A DNA stretch of 64,000 nt from positions 311,993-375,992 of the forward strand of contig NZ_JAABOO010000003.1 in NCBI RefSeq assembly GCF_010671605.1, written 5' to 3'. The stretch comes from Leptobacterium flavescens. Lineage in GTDB: Bacteria > Bacteroidota > Bacteroidia > Flavobacteriales > Flavobacteriaceae. Positions 31,290-42,560 of the stretch are shown in pieces. The notes below the pieces were generated by a model, which was not told the origin of the DNA, did not search any database, and worked only from the letters and a program-made list of their open reading frames with translations. The translations under genes were made by a program, and so were the position numbers. The first letter of the stretch is position 1. The number at the start of each line of letters is the position of its first letter.

Positions 31290-32711
31290 ATGCTATTACT
31301 ACCATTACAACTGGGTGAAAGCGGGTCATTAATGGCCATCGGTTTTGCCATATTATTTTTCTTTATTATTATCATTTCTTTTATCCGGCGGTATAAAAGA
31401 TGTCCGTCAGACCGGATCCTTGTAGTTTACGGAAAAGTGGGTTCGGGAAATTCCGCTAAATGTATTCACGGGGGAGCGGCCTTTATCTGGCCTGTTATCC
31501 AGGACTATGAATTTCTGGACCTGACTCCTATTTCTATAGAAGTAGACCTTACCAATGCATTGAGTAAGCAAAATATACGTGTAAATGTACCCTCCCGATT
31601 TACTATCGGTATCTCTACGGAGCCCGGAGTTATGCAAAATGCAGCAGAGAGATTACTGGGGCTGGGATTACAGGAAGTACAGGAACTGGCAAAGGAAATT
31701 ATTTTCGGGCAGTTGCGTCTTGTAGTGGCCTCTATGGACATTGAAGAGATCAACGCCGACAGGGATAAATTCCTGAGCAATATTTCTTATTCTGTTGAAA
31801 CGGAATTGAAAAAAGTAGGGCTTAAGCTTATTAACGTAAACATCACCGATATCCACGACGAGTCAGGTTATATCGAAGCTCTTGGTAAGGAAGCGGCAGC
31901 TCACGCAATTAACGAAGCGCGTAAGTCGGTTGCCGAAAAGAACAGAGACGGTTCTATCGGAGAGGCGAATGCGGTTCAGGAACAGAGGACCCAGGTTGCA
32001 GCGGCAGATGCCAAGGCGGTAGAAGGAGAGAACGTTGCGAAAATAGACGTGGCAAATTCTAACTCTTTAAGGAGGCAGCGAGAGGCGGAGGCTGAAAGAA
32101 CGGCTATTGCTTCGGAAAAAGTCCAGAATGCAAAAGCACTGGAAGAAGCATATGCAGCAGAGCAGGAAGCTGAGAATGCAAGGGCCGAAAGGGTGAGGGC
32201 TTCTCAAAAAGCCGATATTGTAGTTCCCGCAGAAATAGATAAACGAAAAGTAGAGATCGATGCCGAAGCGGAAGCAGAAATGATCAGGAGAAGGGCAAAG
32301 GGTGAGGCCGATGCGATCCTTTTTAAAGCACAGGCAGAAGCCCAGGGATTGTATGAAGTATTGACCAAGCAGGCGGAAGGTCTGGATCAGATCGTTAAAG
32401 CTGCCGGTAACAACTCTAAGGATGCGGTTCTTTTACTGATTGCCGATAAACTTCCGGAACTGGTAAAAACCCAGGCGGAAGCAATCAAGAATATTAAGAT
32501 CGATAAGGTTACCGTTTGGGACGGAGGCCAGAATAAAGATGGGAAAACATCTACGGCCAATTTCCTTTCCGGGCTCTATCAGTCCGTACCACCTCTGCAG
32601 GAAATGTTCAATATGGCGGGAATGAACCTTCCGGAATATCTGAAAGGGAAGGATGAAGAGCCAATAGAAGTACAGAGTGATCAGGAAAAACAGGAAGAAT
32701 CTGAAGATTAA
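31290..32711 (+). CDS. Flotillin-family SPFH/band-7 protein (YqiK-like)
   Basis: N-terminal TM, SPFH domain, long Ala/Glu-rich coiled coil (EAEAERTAIASEKVQNAKALEEAYAAEQEAENARAERV…). Confidence 0.8.
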   Translation: MLLLPLQLGESGSLMAIGFAILFFFIIIISFIRRYKRCPSDRILVVYGKVGSGNSAKCIHGGAAFIWPVIQDYEFLDLTPISIEVDLTNALSKQNIRVNVPSRFTIGISTEPGVMQNAAERLLGLGLQEVQELAKEIIFGQLRLVVASMDIEEINADRDKFLSNISYSVETELKKVGLKLINVNITDIHDESGYIEALGKEAAAHAINEARKSVAEKNRDGSIGEANAVQEQRTQVAAADAKAVEGENVAKIDVANSNSLRRQREAEAERTAIASEKVQNAKALEEAYAAEQEAENARAERVRASQKADIVVPAEIDKRKVEIDAEAEAEMIRRRAKGEADAILFKAQAEAQGLYEVLTKQAEGLDQIVKAAGNNSKDAVLLLIADKLPELVKTQAEAIKNIKIDKVTVWDGGQNKDGKTSTANFLSGLYQSVPPLQEMFNMAGMNLPEYLKGKDEEPIEVQSDQEKQEESED

Positions 32712-32806
32712 TGGGAAATCCGCTGAAAAGCGGATTTTTTTATGATCTTAAAATAAGGCAAAGACAATTGGTTTTCCTATTTTTGACCCCAGAAGTTTTA
32801 GATATT

Positions 32807-33901
32807 ATGAGTGAAATACGACATAACTGGACGAAAGAAGAAATTCTTGAAATATATAATAAACCATTAATGGAACTGCTTTACGAAGCAGCTTCCGTAC
32901 ACAGAAAATATCACGACCCGAATACAGTTCAGGTCTCTACCTTACTTTCCATTAAAACGGGAGGTTGCCCCGAAGATTGCGGTTATTGTCCGCAGGCGGC
33001 GCGTTACCATACCGATATTGAAGGAAACGACCTGATGACCGTACAGCAGGTAAAAGCCCAGGCACTCAGGGCAAAGGCTTCGGGAAGCTCCAGAGTTTGT
33101 ATGGGAGCAGCCTGGCGTAATGTAAAAGACGGCCCGGAATTCGATCAGGTACTGGAAATGGTACGTACGATCAATAAACTGGAAATGGAAGTATGCTGTA
33201 CCCTCGGAATGGTTACCGAGAATCAGGCTAAGCGACTTGCAGAAGCCGGACTATACGCTTATAACCACAACCTGGATACTTCCGAAGAATACTATAAGGA
33301 AGTGATCTCAACCAGAGGATACCAGGACAGACTGGATACCATAGATAATGTACGTAAGACCAATGTAACTGTTTGTAGCGGAGGGATCATAGGAATGGGA
33401 GAAAAGGTAGAGGACAGAGCAGGAATGCTGGTAGCTTTATCTACCCTGAATCCTCAGCCGGAATCGGTACCGATCAATGCGTTGGTGGCGGTAGACGGTA
33501 CTCCGATGGAAGATGAAGAACCCGTAGAGATCTGGGAAATGATAAGAATGGTGGCTGTAACCAGGATCGTAATGCCGGAAACTCAGGTACGACTTTCTGC
33601 AGGAAGAACCAACATGAGCAGAGAAGGACAGGCTATGTGTTTCTTTGCCGGAGCCAATTCTATATTTGCCGGAGATAAGCTTCTTACCACTCCCAACCCG
33701 GATGTGAATGAGGATATGGAAATGTTCAATAAACTGGGCTTAAATCCGCAGAAACCATTTACTAAAAAAGTTCAGCCTCAAACCGTAGAGGCAGAAGATT
33801 CCCAATACCAGCCAACAGGTGAAAAACCTAAATGGAGCAGACCAGGCCATACTATCGAAAGGAACGAAGAGGCCAAGGAAAAGGCCAAAATGTTAAAATA
33901 G
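32807..33901 (+). CDS. bioB: Biotin synthase (radical SAM) with a roughly 50-aa hydrophilic C-terminal extension
   Basis: CPEDCGYCPQ radical-SAM cluster motif. The ORF track starts at 32711, overlapping flotillin; the in-frame ATG at 32807 (MSEIRHNW) is more likely. Confidence 0.85.
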   Translation: MSEIRHNWTKEEILEIYNKPLMELLYEAASVHRKYHDPNTVQVSTLLSIKTGGCPEDCGYCPQAARYHTDIEGNDLMTVQQVKAQALRAKASGSSRVCMGAAWRNVKDGPEFDQVLEMVRTINKLEMEVCCTLGMVTENQAKRLAEAGLYAYNHNLDTSEEYYKEVISTRGYQDRLDTIDNVRKTNVTVCSGGIIGMGEKVEDRAGMLVALSTLNPQPESVPINALVAVDGTPMEDEEPVEIWEMIRMVAVTRIVMPETQVRLSAGRTNMSREGQAMCFFAGANSIFAGDKLLTTPNPDVNEDMEMFNKLGLNPQKPFTKKVQPQTVEAEDSQYQPTGEKPKWSRPGHTIERNEEAKEKAKMLK

Positions 33902-33952: not shown

Positions 33953-34846
33953 TTGTCTGTTAAGGGAACATTCAATATGAATTTAAAAAAAATACCACGT
34001 GTTCATTCGATCACTAAAGAGGAATTTTTGCGGGATTATTTTAGACCACAAAAGCCTGTAGTTATTGAAGGATTTATAGAGGATTGGCCTGCTTATCAGA
34101 AATGGAACCTCGATTATATGAAGGAAATAGCCGGAGATAAAACGGTTCCGCTCTATGATGACAGACCTGTAGATTACAAAGACGGTTTTAATGAACCTCA
34201 CGCTAAGATGAAAATGAGCGACTATGTTGATCTCCTTAAGCGTGAACCCACCAAATTCAGGATCTTCCTCTGGAATATTCTGAAAGAAGTTCCCGAACTG
34301 CAAAAAGATTTCTCTTATCCCGATTTCGGGCTTCGCCTGATGAAAGGCTTACCTATGTTGTTTTTCGGAGGGAGGGATTCCTATACTTTTATGCATTACG
34401 ATATAGATCTTGCCAATATTTTTCACTTTCATTTTGAAGGGAAAAAACAATGTATCCTCTTTAATCAGGACCAGAGCAAGTATCTGTACAAGATCCCGCA
34501 TTCCCTTATTACGAGAGAGGATATAGATTTTGCGAATCCCGACTATGACAAATGGCCGGCCCTGAAGCATGCAGAAGGCTATATTGCGGAATTAGAGCAC
34601 GGAAGTATCCTGTATATGCCCGAAGGTTGGTGGCATTATATGAGATACCTTACTCCCGGTTTTTCTATGAGCCTAAGAGCTATTGCCAGAAAGCCAAAGC
34701 ACCTGAGTAAGGCGATCTATAACATATTTATAATGCGTCATTTTGATAATGCCATGAGAAGACTCAAAGGACAAGCGTGGATAGATCATAAGAACGAGCA
34801 GGCAATTTCCCGTACCCATAAAAAACTGGGGATCATAGCCGGATAA
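33953..34846 (+). CDS. Cupin-like / JmjC-domain protein
   Basis: HYDIDLANIFHFHFEGKK…WWHYMRYL: His/Asp…His facial-triad-like pattern of JmjC/cupin hydroxylases. Confidence 0.55.
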   Translation: MSVKGTFNMNLKKIPRVHSITKEEFLRDYFRPQKPVVIEGFIEDWPAYQKWNLDYMKEIAGDKTVPLYDDRPVDYKDGFNEPHAKMKMSDYVDLLKREPTKFRIFLWNILKEVPELQKDFSYPDFGLRLMKGLPMLFFGGRDSYTFMHYDIDLANIFHFHFEGKKQCILFNQDQSKYLYKIPHSLITREDIDFANPDYDKWPALKHAEGYIAELEHGSILYMPEGWWHYMRYLTPGFSMSLRAIARKPKHLSKAIYNIFIMRHFDNAMRRLKGQAWIDHKNEQAISRTHKKLGIIAG

Positions 34847-36350: not shown

Positions 36351-36716
36351 ATGAAAAAAAAGGTTTTAGCGCTCTTTTCGGCCATTCTGTTAATTGCGGG
36401 ATGCTCTGAAGAAGAGATAATTGAGCCGGTAGAAACGGTAAATGTAGAAACTTCTGTCCAGAGCCTGGAAGCAGAAAGAGGATTGCAGATAAATGGCCTG
36501 GGAGGGACCACTATCCAGATACACTATAATCACAGTCTGACGATAAGCGAGATCGAAGATATCCGGAGGGAGTATTTCCTGGCTTTTCCCTGCCTGGATA
36601 TGTGCATTCTTCAGCCTACCGATCCTTATCAGGATGTCTGGTGCCACGATTGTAAAGCCGGAGATGAAAATGAAGTACAACAGACGGTAGCCAATGATCC
36701 CAGATTAGGAGATTAA
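36351..36716 (+). CDS. Small lipoprotein with 4-Cys C-terminal segment
   Basis: Lipobox LIAGCSEEE. CLDMCILQ…WCHDCKAG. Confidence 0.4.
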   Translation: MKKKVLALFSAILLIAGCSEEEIIEPVETVNVETSVQSLEAERGLQINGLGGTTIQIHYNHSLTISEIEDIRREYFLAFPCLDMCILQPTDPYQDVWCHDCKAGDENEVQQTVANDPRLGD

Positions 36717-39609: not shown

Positions 39610-41193
39610 ATGAACGAACTCATCCTGCAATTACTTCACAGATCCCATGTATTTCACATAGATAAAAACGATCTGGAACTTCAGTTGATCTCTCACTCTG
39701 CGTACCCCAGCCTGAAAGCGGTAACCGATACTCTCGATTATTTTGGAATAGAAAATATAGCAGCAAATGTTCCGGTAGATGCCCTGGATCAGCTGCCGGA
39801 GAATTTCCTGGCGCTTATAGATGAAGAAGGCGAGACGGAACTGGTATTGGTCAAAAGAAAAAAAACAGATATCCACCTGAAGACCGGAGCCGGAAAAAAA
39901 GTAAAAATGCCGGCCCGGGAATTTGTAAACAAATGGACAGGAACCATCATTGCCGTTGAAAAAGAAGAGAAAAAAGAAAAGGATGCTGTTTTAAAGCAAA
40001 TAGATCTGAAGCTGGTATTCGCAGGATTTGCGGCTTTAACCGTGTTACTGACTATTACCCTGAATGGAGAGATCGTCCGGGCATTATATGTGCTGCTGGC
40101 TTTTCTCGGACTTGGGGTAAGCTATTTTACGGTGAAGAGCGACCTGGGTATAGAAGACAGATTAGTGACCAGGGTGTGTACTGCCATTTCCGGAAAGGGA
40201 GAAGGTTGTAAAGGGGTTATTAACTCTCGTGAAGGCAAACTGTTCAACGCGGTTGGCCTGAGCGATATATCGGTAATATATTTTGCCGGTATCATGGTGG
40301 TCCAGGCAATTGCAGGATTTGACAAAGCTTTCTTCAGCTTACTGTCTTTATGCGCTTTACCGTTTATTGCCTTTTCTCTCTATCTGCAGGCTTTTAAATT
40401 AAAACAATGGTGTTCTTTATGCATAGTAATATCCTCAGTATTGATCTCCCAGTTTGTCCTCCTGTCATTTGGTTCTGCAAACTGGGATCTTTCTTTGAAA
40501 TACCTTTTTAATGCAGGTCTGATCTTTCTTATGGTAGCGGGCGGATGGTATTTGCTGAAAAACCTATGGAAAGACAGGGTTCAGTACAGGGCTACTCTTA
40601 AGGAATTTTACACTTTTAAAAGAAACGGAGACCTTTTTCTTTCTGCCTTAAAAAGCAGGGAGCCGATGACGCAAAATGCACTGGAAAGCCATCACGGACT
40701 TCTTTTTGGCCATCCGAAGGCATCGATCAGGATAACGGCAATTACCAATCCGCTTTGCGGTTTCTGTGAAGAACCTTTTAAAGTATATAGCGGATTATTA
40801 AAAGATCAACCGGAAGAAATACAGCTCCATCTTATTTTCAATGTTCCCGACAATGAGGAGAATAAAGCTACTCAGATCGGATTGAAGATCCTCTCCCTTT
40901 ACGAACAGAACAGGGCCAAGGCTTTTGAAGCTCTGGAGAAGTGGTTTTACAACCGGGATATCGATGCCTGGCTGAAGATCTATGAAAATATCAATATTAG
41001 CCCTCAGGCCCGGGAAATGGCAGAAAAACAGCGACAATGGTGTGCGGACCAGGCCATTAATTATACCCCGGAAACCATTGTTAACTCCTACTACTTTCCT
41101 AAAAGGCAGTATAAAATAGAAGACCTCCGGTTTTTTACCGAAAACCTCAGGGAGCTCAATGTAGAAAGCAGGAAAAGCGGTACTGCTGTCTGA
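39610..41193 (+). CDS. Three-domain protein: N-terminal peptidase-C39-like domain (catalytic Cys to Ser), VKOR-family membrane core, C-terminal thioredoxin/DsbA-like domain
   Basis: N-terminal LQLISHSAYPSLKAVTDTLDYFGI aligns to the C39 QxDxxDCGxACL…YG motif with Ser at the Cys position. VKOR loop Cys pair VCTAISGKGEGC. TM CxxC WCSLC. Trx-fold CxxC NPLCGFCEE. Confidence 0.75.
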   Translation: MNELILQLLHRSHVFHIDKNDLELQLISHSAYPSLKAVTDTLDYFGIENIAANVPVDALDQLPENFLALIDEEGETELVLVKRKKTDIHLKTGAGKKVKMPAREFVNKWTGTIIAVEKEEKKEKDAVLKQIDLKLVFAGFAALTVLLTITLNGEIVRALYVLLAFLGLGVSYFTVKSDLGIEDRLVTRVCTAISGKGEGCKGVINSREGKLFNAVGLSDISVIYFAGIMVVQAIAGFDKAFFSLLSLCALPFIAFSLYLQAFKLKQWCSLCIVISSVLISQFVLLSFGSANWDLSLKYLFNAGLIFLMVAGGWYLLKNLWKDRVQYRATLKEFYTFKRNGDLFLSALKSREPMTQNALESHHGLLFGHPKASIRITAITNPLCGFCEEPFKVYSGLLKDQPEEIQLHLIFNVPDNEENKATQIGLKILSLYEQNRAKAFEALEKWFYNRDIDAWLKIYENINISPQAREMAEKQRQWCADQAINYTPETIVNSYYFPKRQYKIEDLRFFTENLRELNVESRKSGTAV

Positions 41194-41282
41194 AAAGAAG
41201 GATAAAATAACCTGCGCAGGGAAGACACAAGTCCCAAGTGTCTATAAATGTTTGGGAACCGATTAATCTTTAAACTTTAATT

Positions 41283-41465
41283 ATGTTAAAAAACATTTTA
41301 AAACTGGAAGGAACTCAGGAATTGGGTAAAAACGAACAGCGTCAAATCAGTGGTGGAGTGTCCGGCGGGCCGATTTACTGCGACTCCGATGCAGATTGTG
41401 CTATTGTATGCGGAAAGTGCGTAGGCTTCGGGATTTGCCTTCATGCTGTACCTGCCTGTGCTTAA
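41283..41465 (+). CDS. Double-glycine-leader precursor peptide, 6-Cys core (bacteriocin/RiPP-like)
   Basis: Leader MLKNILKLEGTQELGKNEQRQISGG fits L(-12) E(-8) I(-4) G(-2) G(-1). Core VSGGPIYCDSDADCAIVCGKCVGFGICLHAVPACA. Confidence 0.6.
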   Translation: MLKNILKLEGTQELGKNEQRQISGGVSGGPIYCDSDADCAIVCGKCVGFGICLHAVPACA

Positions 41466-41565
41466 ATAAATGGTTAAGGGAACAGACAACCTCAATAGTT
41501 TATTGGGGTTGTTTGTATTGATTTTACTCGATCACTTCAGATAAGCTAATTCTAAATTCAACGAT

Positions 41566-41748
41566 ATGGTAAAAGCAATTTTAAGTTTTGCTGAGGAACT
41601 CGGCAAAGAACAACAAAAAAGTATTATAGGGGGCGGGAACACATATACGGAGCGGCAATGTGCCACGCATAGTGATTGCCCTCCGGGTTACTGCTGTAAT
41701 GACCCCAGAACGGGCATATGTGAGCCATCTGGCGGTGCATGCAGGTAA
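41566..41748 (+). CDS. Double-glycine-leader precursor peptide, 6-Cys core
   Basis: Leader …FAEELGKEQQKSIIGG. Core GNTYTERQCATHSDCPPGYCCNDPRTGICEPSGGACR. Confidence 0.55.
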   Translation: MVKAILSFAEELGKEQQKSIIGGGNTYTERQCATHSDCPPGYCCNDPRTGICEPSGGACR

Positions 41749-41815
41749 AAGACCAGACACAAACCCCGGGTGTCTTTAAATGTTCGGGGAATAGCTAATT
41801 TAAAATTCAAACATC

Positions 41816-42043
41816 ATGTTAAAAAACATTTTAAATGTAAAAGGAGTTCAGCAACTCAGCAAAGATGAGCAAAGAGCCATCGGAGGTGGGATGCTTGGAG
41901 TACAGTGTAACACTTTAAGCCAGTGCTCTCTTAATTGCAACGGAAGTACCGAAGAGTGTGTTGCAATAAGTATTCCTACAGGCGGAGGCCTGATAGAGCA
42001 CGTCGTATGTTACGAATGTGTAAGTACAATTAACCACCAGTAA
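41816..42043 (+). CDS. Double-glycine-leader precursor peptide, 6-Cys core
   Basis: Leader MLKNILNVKGVQQLSKDEQRAIGGG (LSxxE…I.GG consensus). Core MLGVQCNTLSQCSLNCNGSTEECVAISIPTGGGLIEHVVCYECVSTINHQ. Confidence 0.6.
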   Translation: MLKNILNVKGVQQLSKDEQRAIGGGMLGVQCNTLSQCSLNCNGSTEECVAISIPTGGGLIEHVVCYECVSTINHQ

Positions 42044-42080
42044 TGGTAAACCGGGCCTGAAGATATTCGGGCCTGTTTTT

Positions 42081-42560
42081 TTACAGCTCAGAACTGAGTT
42101 CGTTAAGCTTGTCGAAGATCATCTGGCTTTCCCAGCCTCTGTATAACAGGTAGGAGGTAAATTTCTTTTTCCTCAATTGAATATGCTGATCTTTGAGCTG
42201 TTCCCATCGCTTTTCGGAAAGCTCTTCAAAAGTATTGAAATAGTCTTCATTACTGATCTCTTTCATGGCAGAGCGGATATTGAACCTGGAGATGTCGCGA
42301 AACTTAAGCTCCTGTTCTATTCTTTTTCTCCCCCATTTTTTTATGTTGAATTTTCCCCGGGCAAAACTTCTGGCAAACCGCTCTTCATTCAGGTAATTGT
42401 GTTGAATGAGGTGAGTTACTATAAGATCTATAGCTTCCGGGATCATACGCATTTCCTTTAATCTGGCAACAACTTCTTTATGACATCTTTCCTGATAGGC
42501 ACAGAAGGATTCCAGTTTCCTGGTAGCTTCATCAACGGTATATGATCTTGAATTTCTCAC
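42081..42560 (-). CDS. recX: RecX-family regulatory protein
   Basis: About 159 aa of three-helix repeats. …AYQERCHKEVVARLKE… typical RecX. Confidence 0.7.
   Translation of the reverse strand: MRNSRSYTVDEATRKLESFCAYQERCHKEVVARLKEMRMIPEAIDLIVTHLIQHNYLNEERFARSFARGKFNIKKWGRKRIEQELKFRDISRFNIRSAMKEISNEDYFNTFEELSEKRWEQLKDQHIQLRKKKFTSYLLYRGWESQMIFDKLNELSSEL

Follow-up and report, generated by a model that had tools for sequence, protein, structure and literature searches.

Cysteine-rich, double-glycine-leader peptides of Leptobacterium flavescens and a proposed leader-guided disulfide-forming enzyme encoded beside them

What are the three short open reading frames (ORFs) that follow one another on the forward strand of Leptobacterium flavescens (Flavobacteriaceae) at 41283-42043 of the stretch of DNA analyzed here, and by what route might their products, which share a leader and contain six cysteines each, be oxidized and leave the cell? 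The whole stretch of 64 kb is called the window below, and coordinates refer to it. The original prediction had seen, between 41215 and 42080, three tandem genes of 60, 60 and 75 aa for secreted peptides resembling bacteriocins or peptides that are ribosomally made and then modified post-translationally (RiPPs), and adjacent ORFs of exactly these lengths are present; the same span also holds a structured element (41211-41256) and a terminator (42052-42075). Based on the analysis described below, all three ORFs are real genes and encode precursors that belong to a large family of double-glycine (GG)-leader, disulfide-rich mini-proteins in Bacteroidota, the adjacent 527-aa membrane protein is proposed to be a leader-guided disulfide-forming enzyme, and a conserved element in front of two of the three genes is pseudoknot-like and apparently RNA. 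Taken as a whole, such a family served by leader-guided oxidation and an export pathway is considered the probable explanation of the locus.

Each of the three peptides (pep1 to pep3, Table 1) combines a leader ending in two or more glycines with a core of 35, 37 or 50 aa that contains six cysteines, as had been predicted. The leader pattern originally described, with Leu at -12, Glu at -8, Ile at -4 and a terminal GG, is correct for the Leu and the GG and, in pep1, pep3 and most members of the wider family, for the Glu, while pep2 has Glu at -9 and Gln at -8, and position -4 is occupied by Ile, Leu or Val. The leaders end in SGG (pep1), IGG (pep2) and GGG (pep3), and the cleavage register of the last is ambiguous (GG/G or GGG/). 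Within the window the leaders are identical at 10-16 of 25 positions while the cores have 11-12 identical residues over 37-50, and a core-versus-core search among the three gave no match at E<1, in agreement with the claim that they are mutually unrelated. At the DNA level pep1 and pep3 have an identity of 70% over their opening 77 nt, and the core regions are unalignable. The cysteines are spaced C-x5-C-x3-C-x2-C-x5-C-x6-C in pep1, C-x5-C-x4-CC-x7-C-x6-C in pep2 and C-x5-C-x3-C-x6-C-x16-C-x2-C in pep3, and the pep2 spacing, which fits the usual knottin consensus C-C-CC-C-C, can be termed knottin-like on this basis. The computed monoisotopic masses of the oxidized cores are 3407.458, 3912.523 and 5247.321 Da (5304.342 Da for pep3 if cut GG/G). 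In GenBank pep1 and pep3 are the hypothetical proteins GWK08_13795 and GWK08_13800, while the exact sequence of pep2 was not found in a collection of 15 billion proteins, and the gene has therefore probably never been called in public annotation.

That these peptides belong to a family was shown using the neighborhood of the 527-aa protein. An alignment of 23 homologues of this protein was used to fetch 80 genomic loci, which come from metagenome-assembled genomes of Aquimarina, Kordia, Dokdonia and Flavobacterium, with others belonging to Saprospiraceae, Roseivirga and Ohtaekwangia. A hidden Markov model (HMM) built solely from the three window leaders was run on all stop-to-stop frames of these loci at E<=1 and gave 134 matches, compared with none in the reversed sequences that served as control, and a second round gave 141 peptides in 64 of 81 loci. 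Most of them (119) are encoded on the same strand as the enzyme gene and downstream of it, the median distance being 399 nt, and each array comprises 1-7 genes. The leader consensus is MLKNILNLxGAQxLxKxEQKxIxGG, with G24 and G25 invariant in 50 family leaders, and each of the window cores has a relative among these loci, such as L001_10077, which is 45% identical to the pep1 core with an equal Cys framework, and L002_2239, which is 30% identical to that of pep3, while the motif CPPGYCC is common to pep2 and the loci L011 and L040. Between loci the leaders are 53% identical and the cores 23% (17% excluding Cys), so that the original picture of a conserved leader followed by divergent cores extends well beyond the window. 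Gly (14%), Cys (14%) and Pro (8%) are abundant in the cores, and the number of cysteines among the 141 peptides is mainly four (58 peptides) or six (52). It is even in 79 of the 95 unique peptides from enzyme-anchored loci (p=3e-11) and in 104 of 106 peptides of an independent metagenome sample that was anchored on the upstream element, where the count is 4, 6 or 8 for 103 of the 106 peptides that are unique and complete.

The possibility that the three ORFs are chance open frames in intergenic DNA, to which the shortness of each ORF and the missing exact match of pep2 might point, is effectively refuted by this conservation and retains almost no probability. The leader HMM matches them with E-values on the order of 1e-12 to 1e-15 (pep1, 1.4e-15; pep2, 1.9e-12; pep3, 1.1e-15) and reversed sequences not at all, hundreds of homologues lie at the equivalent genomic position, and the Cys frameworks are kept in relatives of the cores. 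The earlier suggestion of a putatively secreted, bacteriocin- or RiPP-like family likewise gains support from 141 members that lie beside oxidoreductase homologues, from their mostly even Cys numbers, and from the presence in relatives of genes for an ATP-binding cassette (ABC) transporter that contains a peptidase (PCAT) and an HlyD-family adaptor.

The peptide genes are for the most part either listed as hypothetical or left uncalled. A search of 5.8 billion proteins with the family profile gave 76 members, every one of which is labelled hypothetical and none of which has a Pfam domain. Several results weigh against the proposed explanation of the locus. Position -7 of the leader is a near-invariant Gln across the family rather than the usual hydrophobic residue. 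None of the curated GG-leader HMMs tried on the family reaches significance, as the Bacteroidota models NF047798 (leader_Chryseo, 'bacteriocin-like protein') and PF14406 (Bacteroid_pep) are matched weakly by 15 (best E 0.008) and 2 of 53 members and PF10439 by one (E 0.056). A scan of the three window peptides against NCBIfam and Pfam at E<=1 gave no match of meaning, including to TIGR01847-type models, with which the original prediction had proposed to search the leaders, and to PF10439, NF047798 and PF14406; pep2 has weak Pfam matches to Conotoxin I and Draxin. The predicted mature peptides of the window are acidic (pI 4.4-5.5) and the median net charge of cores across the family is -1, whereas bacteroidetocins A and B are somewhat basic. 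Finally, no immunity gene is evident, and tblastn searches of the 64-kb window with PCAT and HlyD found neither, which leaves export in L. flavescens unexplained.

The peptides are a new branch of a known kind, and are bacteroidetocin-like. Bacteroidetocins are class IIf bacteriocins of the Bacteroidales with a leader of 15-16 aa, mostly four cysteines and somewhat basic mature peptides of 42 aa, and their genes are found in a four-gene layout that encodes a five-transmembrane protein, the peptide, a thiol oxidoreductase, for which no domain architecture is stated, and a PCAT (Coyne et al., 2019; PMC6671954). Judged from this published description, the two groups have in common that they are GG-leader peptides of Bacteroidota with disulfide-forming cysteines, a dedicated thiol oxidoreductase and a PCAT in the cluster, that there is no obvious immunity gene, and that many of the peptide genes are unannotated. 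They differ in that the leaders described here have 23-25 aa, a MLKNIL N-terminus and Gln at -7, the window peptides have six cysteines and acidic cores, a single C39-like/VKOR/DsbA fusion takes the place of the separate five-transmembrane protein and oxidoreductase, and an RNA element is added. The four-gene layout itself is not found in the window, where the fusion gene is followed by three peptide genes and no PCAT. Sublancin-type clusters are also known to encode a GG-leader precursor, a PCAT and dedicated Bdb disulfide enzymes, and prochlorosin-like RiPP families consist of multi-gene arrays with a constant leader and hypervariable cores that are served by one enzyme. The system described here resembles these in its GG leader, PCAT and disulfide enzyme and in its conserved leader with hypervariable cores, while it differs from them in that no glycosyltransferase or lanthionine enzyme is encoded in the window and the oxidase is the only conserved tailoring enzyme.

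The 527-aa protein (GWK08_13790 of L. flavescens, 100% identical) consists of three parts, the first of which is a domain (residues 1 to ~120) that is matched by Pfam Peptidase_C39 with 24.3 bits (cut-off 22). In a Foldseek search its AlphaFold2 model, which has a predicted local distance difference test (pLDDT) score of 88.5, is most similar to ComA, PCAT1, LahT150 and HlyB-CLD, with template modeling (TM) scores of 0.62-0.72 and E-values of 6e-6 to 5e-4 for the first three, and when it is aligned by hhalign with active C39 domains from exporters encoded at related loci, the probability is 95%. The structure of LahT150 was solved with a leader bound, and the C39-like domain of HlyB is inactive. 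While the exporter C39 domains keep Q9, C15, H88 and D104, the segment that bears the Gln and Cys is missing from the window domain, His88 and Asp104 align to non-conserved residues, and the domain is Cys-free in the window protein and in 67 of 85 homologues. Since all of the catalytic residues are gone, this is a C39-like binding module and not a protease. It has the C39 fold of ComA, PCAT1, LahT and HlyB-CLD and, like the C39-like domain of HlyB, would be expected to bind its substrate uncut, but unlike those of PCATs and HlyB it lacks the N-terminal Gln/Cys stretch, and its fusion partner is not an ABC transporter but a VKOR-DsbA oxidase.

The second part is a VKOR core (PF07884, 46.9 bits, cut-off 27.5; profile match to the VKOR-like structure 6wv9 with E 3.7e-7) in which C190 and C200 of the loop and C268-x-x-C271 are invariant. 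The third is a domain with invariant C383-G-F-C386 and T486-P487 (cis-Pro487), which matches ScsC/DsbA-like structures with a profile E of 1.5e-9 and a Foldseek TMt of 0.6-0.76 (ScsC, BdbD, DsbA fold) and is weakly matched by Pfam Thioredoxin_4; a single-sequence search of the PDB with the membrane part gave only noise. As in DsbB/DsbA and in VKOR-thioredoxin fusions such as Synechococcus VKOR, four VKOR cysteines are accompanied by a partner domain with CXXC and cis-Pro that is attached through an extra helix, and electrons would be expected to flow to quinone, while the differences are the presence of six helices instead of five, the N-terminal C39-like domain and an orientation that the charges predict to be opposite. 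A profile search with the N-terminal domain gave 2554 cluster representatives (50% identity clusters) at E<=1e-3, of which 1167 reach E<=1e-10, and nearly all of the best 150 matches have 505-560 aa or are fragments; because they share the length of the fusion, the three-part protein is regarded as a large family. It is spread over marine Flavobacteriia, Cytophagales and gut Parabacteroides. Searches of the literature on VKOR and C39, inverted VKOR, knottin and PCAT, and bacteriocins and Aquimarina gave no paper describing the system, and the dead-C39/VKOR/DsbA architecture, the orientation predicted for it and the pseudoknot element specific to the peptide genes all appear to be undescribed.

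Because a leader-binding fold is fused to an oxidase, and the genes are linked, we infer a pathway of leader-guided oxidation. The precursor would be made in the cytoplasm with its leader of 23-25 aa, which would be bound by the dead C39-like domain of the adjacent membrane protein, and the DsbA-like domain would oxidize the six core cysteines to three disulfides while itself being reoxidized by the VKOR core, from which electrons would pass to the membrane quinone. Helix parity and charge bias suggest that oxidation takes place on the cytoplasmic face, ahead of export, after which a PCAT with HlyD would cleave behind the GG and secrete the folded peptide; the exporter used by L. flavescens may be encoded elsewhere in the genome or may have been lost. 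In its fullest form the proposal is that of a RiPP-like pathway in which disulfides are the sole tailoring, where an inverted, cytoplasmic VKOR-DsbA guided by a dead C39 domain folds mini-proteins of 4-8 cysteines before their one-step secretion by PCAT/HlyD and a new pseudoknot RNA marks and controls the genes, and this complete version is tentative and falls a little short of an even bet. If true, it would represent a dedicated, substrate-addressed bacterial route to multi-disulfide peptides in which a leader-binding domain is wired to a quinone-driven oxidase that may operate in the cytoplasm. It would then be nature's equivalent of the cytoplasmic disulfide systems that have been engineered, and a ready tool for making knottin-like peptides. 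As the enzyme family comprises more than 1000 clusters at 50% identity and the peptide genes are mostly hypothetical or uncalled, there would also be a reservoir of secreted Cys-rich peptides that is invisible to mining tools.

On which side of the membrane would oxidation occur? Hydropathy and the full-length AlphaFold model (pLDDT 83.4) agree on six long hydrophobic helices (133-152, 155-178, 217-234, 239-264, 269-286 and 296-337), of which the first two show strong hydrophobicity and are joined by just 2-3 residues. The VKOR core begins at helix 2, which makes helix 1 the additional one relative to the five-helix VKOR-thioredoxin fusions, and with six spans the C39-like domain, the DsbA-like domain and the VKOR cysteines all come to lie on one side. 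Lysine and arginine (K+R) average 14.9 per protein on this side (9.4 minus the long Cys loop) compared with 0.26 in the three opposite loops, and the bias is seen in 52 of 53 proteins with six predicted helices. The flanks are K+R-rich, with 2.96 per 15 aa before helix 1 and 4.8 after helix 6, no signal peptide is predicted for the fusion protein, and where the canonical VKOR 6wv9 has K/R before TM1 and after TM4, the fusion family has almost none. In all systems studied, C39 domains and GG leaders are located in the cytoplasm. Because of this last point, the K-rich flank before helix 1 and the lack of a signal peptide, the leader-binding domain and the redox sites are predicted to face the cytoplasm, which is the orientation that we favor by a modest degree. 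Three considerations stand in its way. The sole basis for the sidedness is helix counting and the positive-inside rule, and 6wv9 is also positive in the Cys loop and before the CXXC, which weakens part of the bias. To our knowledge, every characterized bacterial VKOR and DsbA-like protein acts outside the cytoplasm, and a cytoplasm-facing VKOR or DsbB is known only from engineered constructs and hyperthermophilic archaea (Hatahet and Ruddock, 2013).

The same peptides and enzyme could instead be parts of a system in which oxidation is extracytoplasmic, as in VKOR/DsbA systems, and this we consider unlikely while giving it appreciable weight. Either the N-terminal domain would be translocated together with the DsbA-like domain and hold the uncleaved leader in the periplasm, or helix 1 would be non-spanning, such that the C39-like domain is cytoplasmic, for example to dock the precursor or the exporter, and the redox sites are periplasmic. 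The closest structural matches of the C-terminal domain, ScsC, BdbD and DsbA, do work outside the cytoplasm, and so do the Bdb proteins of Bacillus, where sublancin clusters have dedicated oxidoreductases. Dedicated oxidoreductases are also carried by bacteroidetocin clusters (PMC6671954), and part of the charge bias is present in canonical VKOR. However, the K/R-rich flank and the absent signal peptide disfavor movement of a folded N-terminal domain of 130 aa across the membrane, and with the leader being removed by a PCAT at the cytoplasmic face, a domain that binds leaders would be left with no ligand in the periplasm. That helix 1 does not span the membrane is in turn made unlikely by the two hydrophobic helices with their connection of 2-3 residues, and the contrast in K+R between the opposite-side loops in total and the flank behind helix 6 argues against this alternative.

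The peptide genes are also marked by a conserved element. In front of pep1 and pep3 this has the layout AGACAC-N3-4-(arm)-GTGTCT-NTAAATGT-(arm'), where the order of segments is that of an H-type pseudoknot, with the 5' arm of stem S1 followed by 3-4 nt, the 5' arm of stem S2, the 3' arm of S1, 8 nt and the 3' arm of S2. The window contains two copies only, both preceding peptide genes, while pep2 has none, and the second copy begins 7 nt past the pep2 stop. At related loci the element precedes 63 of the 141 peptide genes at a fixed distance. In an alignment of 51 distinct copies, which was compared with 500 shuffles and with slid registers, S1 and S2 are paired in 96.8% of cells and S2 alone in 94.8%, compensatory changes are found at all six S2 pairs, the closing S1 pair covaries as well, and these values are approached by 0 of 500 shuffles and by no slid register. 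In 31 of 65 copies S1 is directly adjoined by an additional hairpin, P0, compared with a shuffle mean of 9.8, and P0 also covaries. On the peptide-sense strand G-U combinations outnumber A-C by 29 to 6, an excess that points to RNA rather than duplex DNA. Nested minimum free energy (MFE) folding of the element is a point against this view as it is non-significant (z -0.4 to -0.8), although a weak MFE is expected of a short pseudoknot and covariation was used for this reason. Rfam has no match at gathering score in the window and none to the element at E<=10 within 41150-42100.

Independent support for the association with peptide genes comes from metagenome contigs that were scanned for the element alone, without reference to enzyme or leader, which gave 143 instances in 113 stretches, 122 of them with a 6-bp S2. 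An ORF starts at a median of 30 nt downstream of 131 of the 143, and 117 of these 131 ORFs are positive with the leader HMM. Most of the others encode GG-leader, Cys-rich peptides with a different, longer type of leader (MKKLSLKKLKLE...LKSVxGG), examples of which follow the elements at L142 1034-1064 and 2281-2311, L157 153-183 and L083 1312-1342. The element is therefore common to several leader families and is not inherited with one. A C39-like domain is encoded in 32 and an active-type C39 in 28 of the 54 metagenome stretches of at least 5 kb, and an active-type C39 in 47 of all 113 element-anchored loci. The element thus provides a specific search handle and is a candidate for a new class of cis-acting RNA, which would probably act on the mRNA through stability, processing or regulation, with a ligand- or protein-responsive switch as one candidate.

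Alternatively, the element might act as DNA, either as a promoter for an alternative or extracytoplasmic function (ECF) sigma factor or as an operator with the dyad AGACAC...GTGTCT, but this seems rather improbable. S1 is indeed a near-invariant inverted repeat, as a dyad bound by protein should be, a -35/-10 layout is suggested by TAGACA-N17-TAAATG, the spacing to the ATG is very constant, the 7 nt between the pep2 stop and copy 2 leave no space for a separate promoter, and an ECF sigma gene lies close by in some loci. What a DNA site does not account for is that the sequence of S2 varies and yet stays paired, with compensatory changes at six pairs, that the S1 closing pair and the abutting P0 covary, and that the preference for G-U over A-C is confined to the sense strand. 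Moreover, a scan for sigma-70-type promoters was no better than shuffles, and no Bacteroidetes-type -33/-7 promoter could be placed by eye. Separately from the element, pep1 and pep2 are separated by a very stable hairpin whose tail is U-rich, indicating at least two transcription units in the three-gene array.

What the peptides do is most likely antagonism between bacteria, a reading by analogy with bacteroidetocins and with hypervariable cores in arrays, and the products would accordingly serve competition; acidic peptides could also be toxins that target a receptor, inhibitors or signals. That they are not toxins at all, being signals or ligands, for example pheromones for the module of ECF sigma factor, membrane TPR anti-sigma factor and periplasmic TPR-CHAT protein encoded nearby, or stable knottin-type inhibitors of foreign enzymes, is improbable. 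In 13-15 loci the cluster does come with sigma, anti-sigma-like and CHAT genes, some of them duplicated so as to flank the peptides, the mature products are acidic, an immunity gene was not seen, and a few of 53 members have weak Pfam similarity to the Cys frameworks of squash/carboxypeptidase inhibitor, conotoxin and Dickkopf. On the other hand, about 65 of 81 loci have no sigma/CHAT module within 8 kb, hypervariable cores in multi-gene arrays typify antagonism and not a signal-receptor pair, and the nearest characterized relatives, the bacteroidetocins, kill bacteria (PMC6671954, PMC8546649).

Table 1. Positions of the peptide genes, the upstream element and neighboring features in the 64-kb window.
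Feature	Position	Strand	Description
Single-pass membrane TPR protein, 265 aa	34855-35652	-	C-terminal TPR; overlaps sigma gene by 4 nt; with cluster in 13 loci
ECF-type sigma factor, 189 aa	35649-36218	-	Sigma70_r2; with cluster in 14 loci
Small lipoprotein	36351-36716	+	next to cluster
TPR-CHAT protein, 919 aa	36745-39504	+	signal-like N-terminus, C-terminal membrane anchor; with cluster in 15 of 81 loci
Fusion protein, 527 aa	39610-41193	+	dead C39-like domain, VKOR core, DsbA-like domain
Element copy 1	41211-41256	+	P0, S1 and S2; ends 27 nt before pep1 ATG
Copy 1, P0 hairpin	41211-41220	+	CCTG-CG-CAGG
Copy 1, S1	41223-41228 with 41238-41243	+	AGACAC with GTGTCT
Copy 1, S2	41233-41237 with 41252-41256	+	CCCAA with TTGGG
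pep1	41283-41465	+	60 aa, ATG; 25-aa GG leader MLKNILKLEGTQELGKNEQRQISGG, 35-aa six-Cys core
Probable terminator after pep1	41482-41516	+	hairpin and U-rich tail; -20.5 kcal/mol, z = -5.3
pep2	41566-41748	+	60 aa, ATG; 23-aa GG leader MVKAILSFAEELGKEQQKSIIGG, 37-aa six-Cys core
Element copy 2	41755-41789	+	S1 AGACAC/GTGTCT, S2 CCCCGG/TCGGGG; no P0; ends 27 nt before pep3 ATG
pep3	41816-42043	+	75 aa, ATG; 25-aa GG(G) leader MLKNILNVKGVQQLSKDEQRAIGGG, 50-aa six-Cys core
Probable terminator after pep3 and cluster end	42052-42085	+	hairpin and T run; terminator scan

Genes for the presumed exporter are found at some of the related loci, where a PCAT (a peptidase-ABC exporter of 729 aa) is encoded after the enzyme and peptides in 10 and an HlyD-family adaptor in 11 of the 80 fetched loci, and exporter genes are among those present in the closest relative, L001. 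A plasmid of Aureibacter tunicatorum has the order fusion enzyme, two six-Cys GG peptides, PCAT and HlyD. On a plasmid of Parabacteroides distasonis (NZ_OY725766.1; L081, 5908-13518) the fusion enzyme, a six-Cys peptide of 59 aa and a PCAT are accompanied by DUF4369, a LanC-family protein and two glycosyltransferases, which suggests that the oxidase has been recruited into more extensively tailored, glycocin- or lanthipeptide-like clusters as well.

In the window, the 265-aa TPR protein upstream of the cluster looks like an anti-sigma factor, and the sigma/TPR/CHAT trio, which recurs in 13-15 related loci and is at times duplicated around the peptide genes (L004, L006 and L007), is considered to be an accessory and possibly regulatory module because it is missing from most loci. 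Downstream of pep3 the terminator is followed by recX and a gene for RNase G on the opposite strand. Three genes further upstream were considered as candidates for other tailoring enzymes and rejected, since none has a counterpart in any of the 80 loci: a Cupin_8 gene (JmjC-like, 33953-34846), a radical-SAM/BATS gene (biotin-synthase-like, 32711-33901) and a Band_7/SPFH gene (31290-32711). At most Aquimarina loci the cluster is inserted amid cell-shape genes, and the neighbors mreBCD, mrdA, rodA, S41 peptidase, surE and lpxB represent housekeeping synteny and not parts of the system. One 3.3-kb contig that is binned with the Oligoflexales (L002, JALZUO010000115.1) has a typical Flavobacteriia-type locus, with an enzyme that is 43% identical, two peptides and a copy of the element, and this could be either a mis-binned contig or a case of horizontal transfer.

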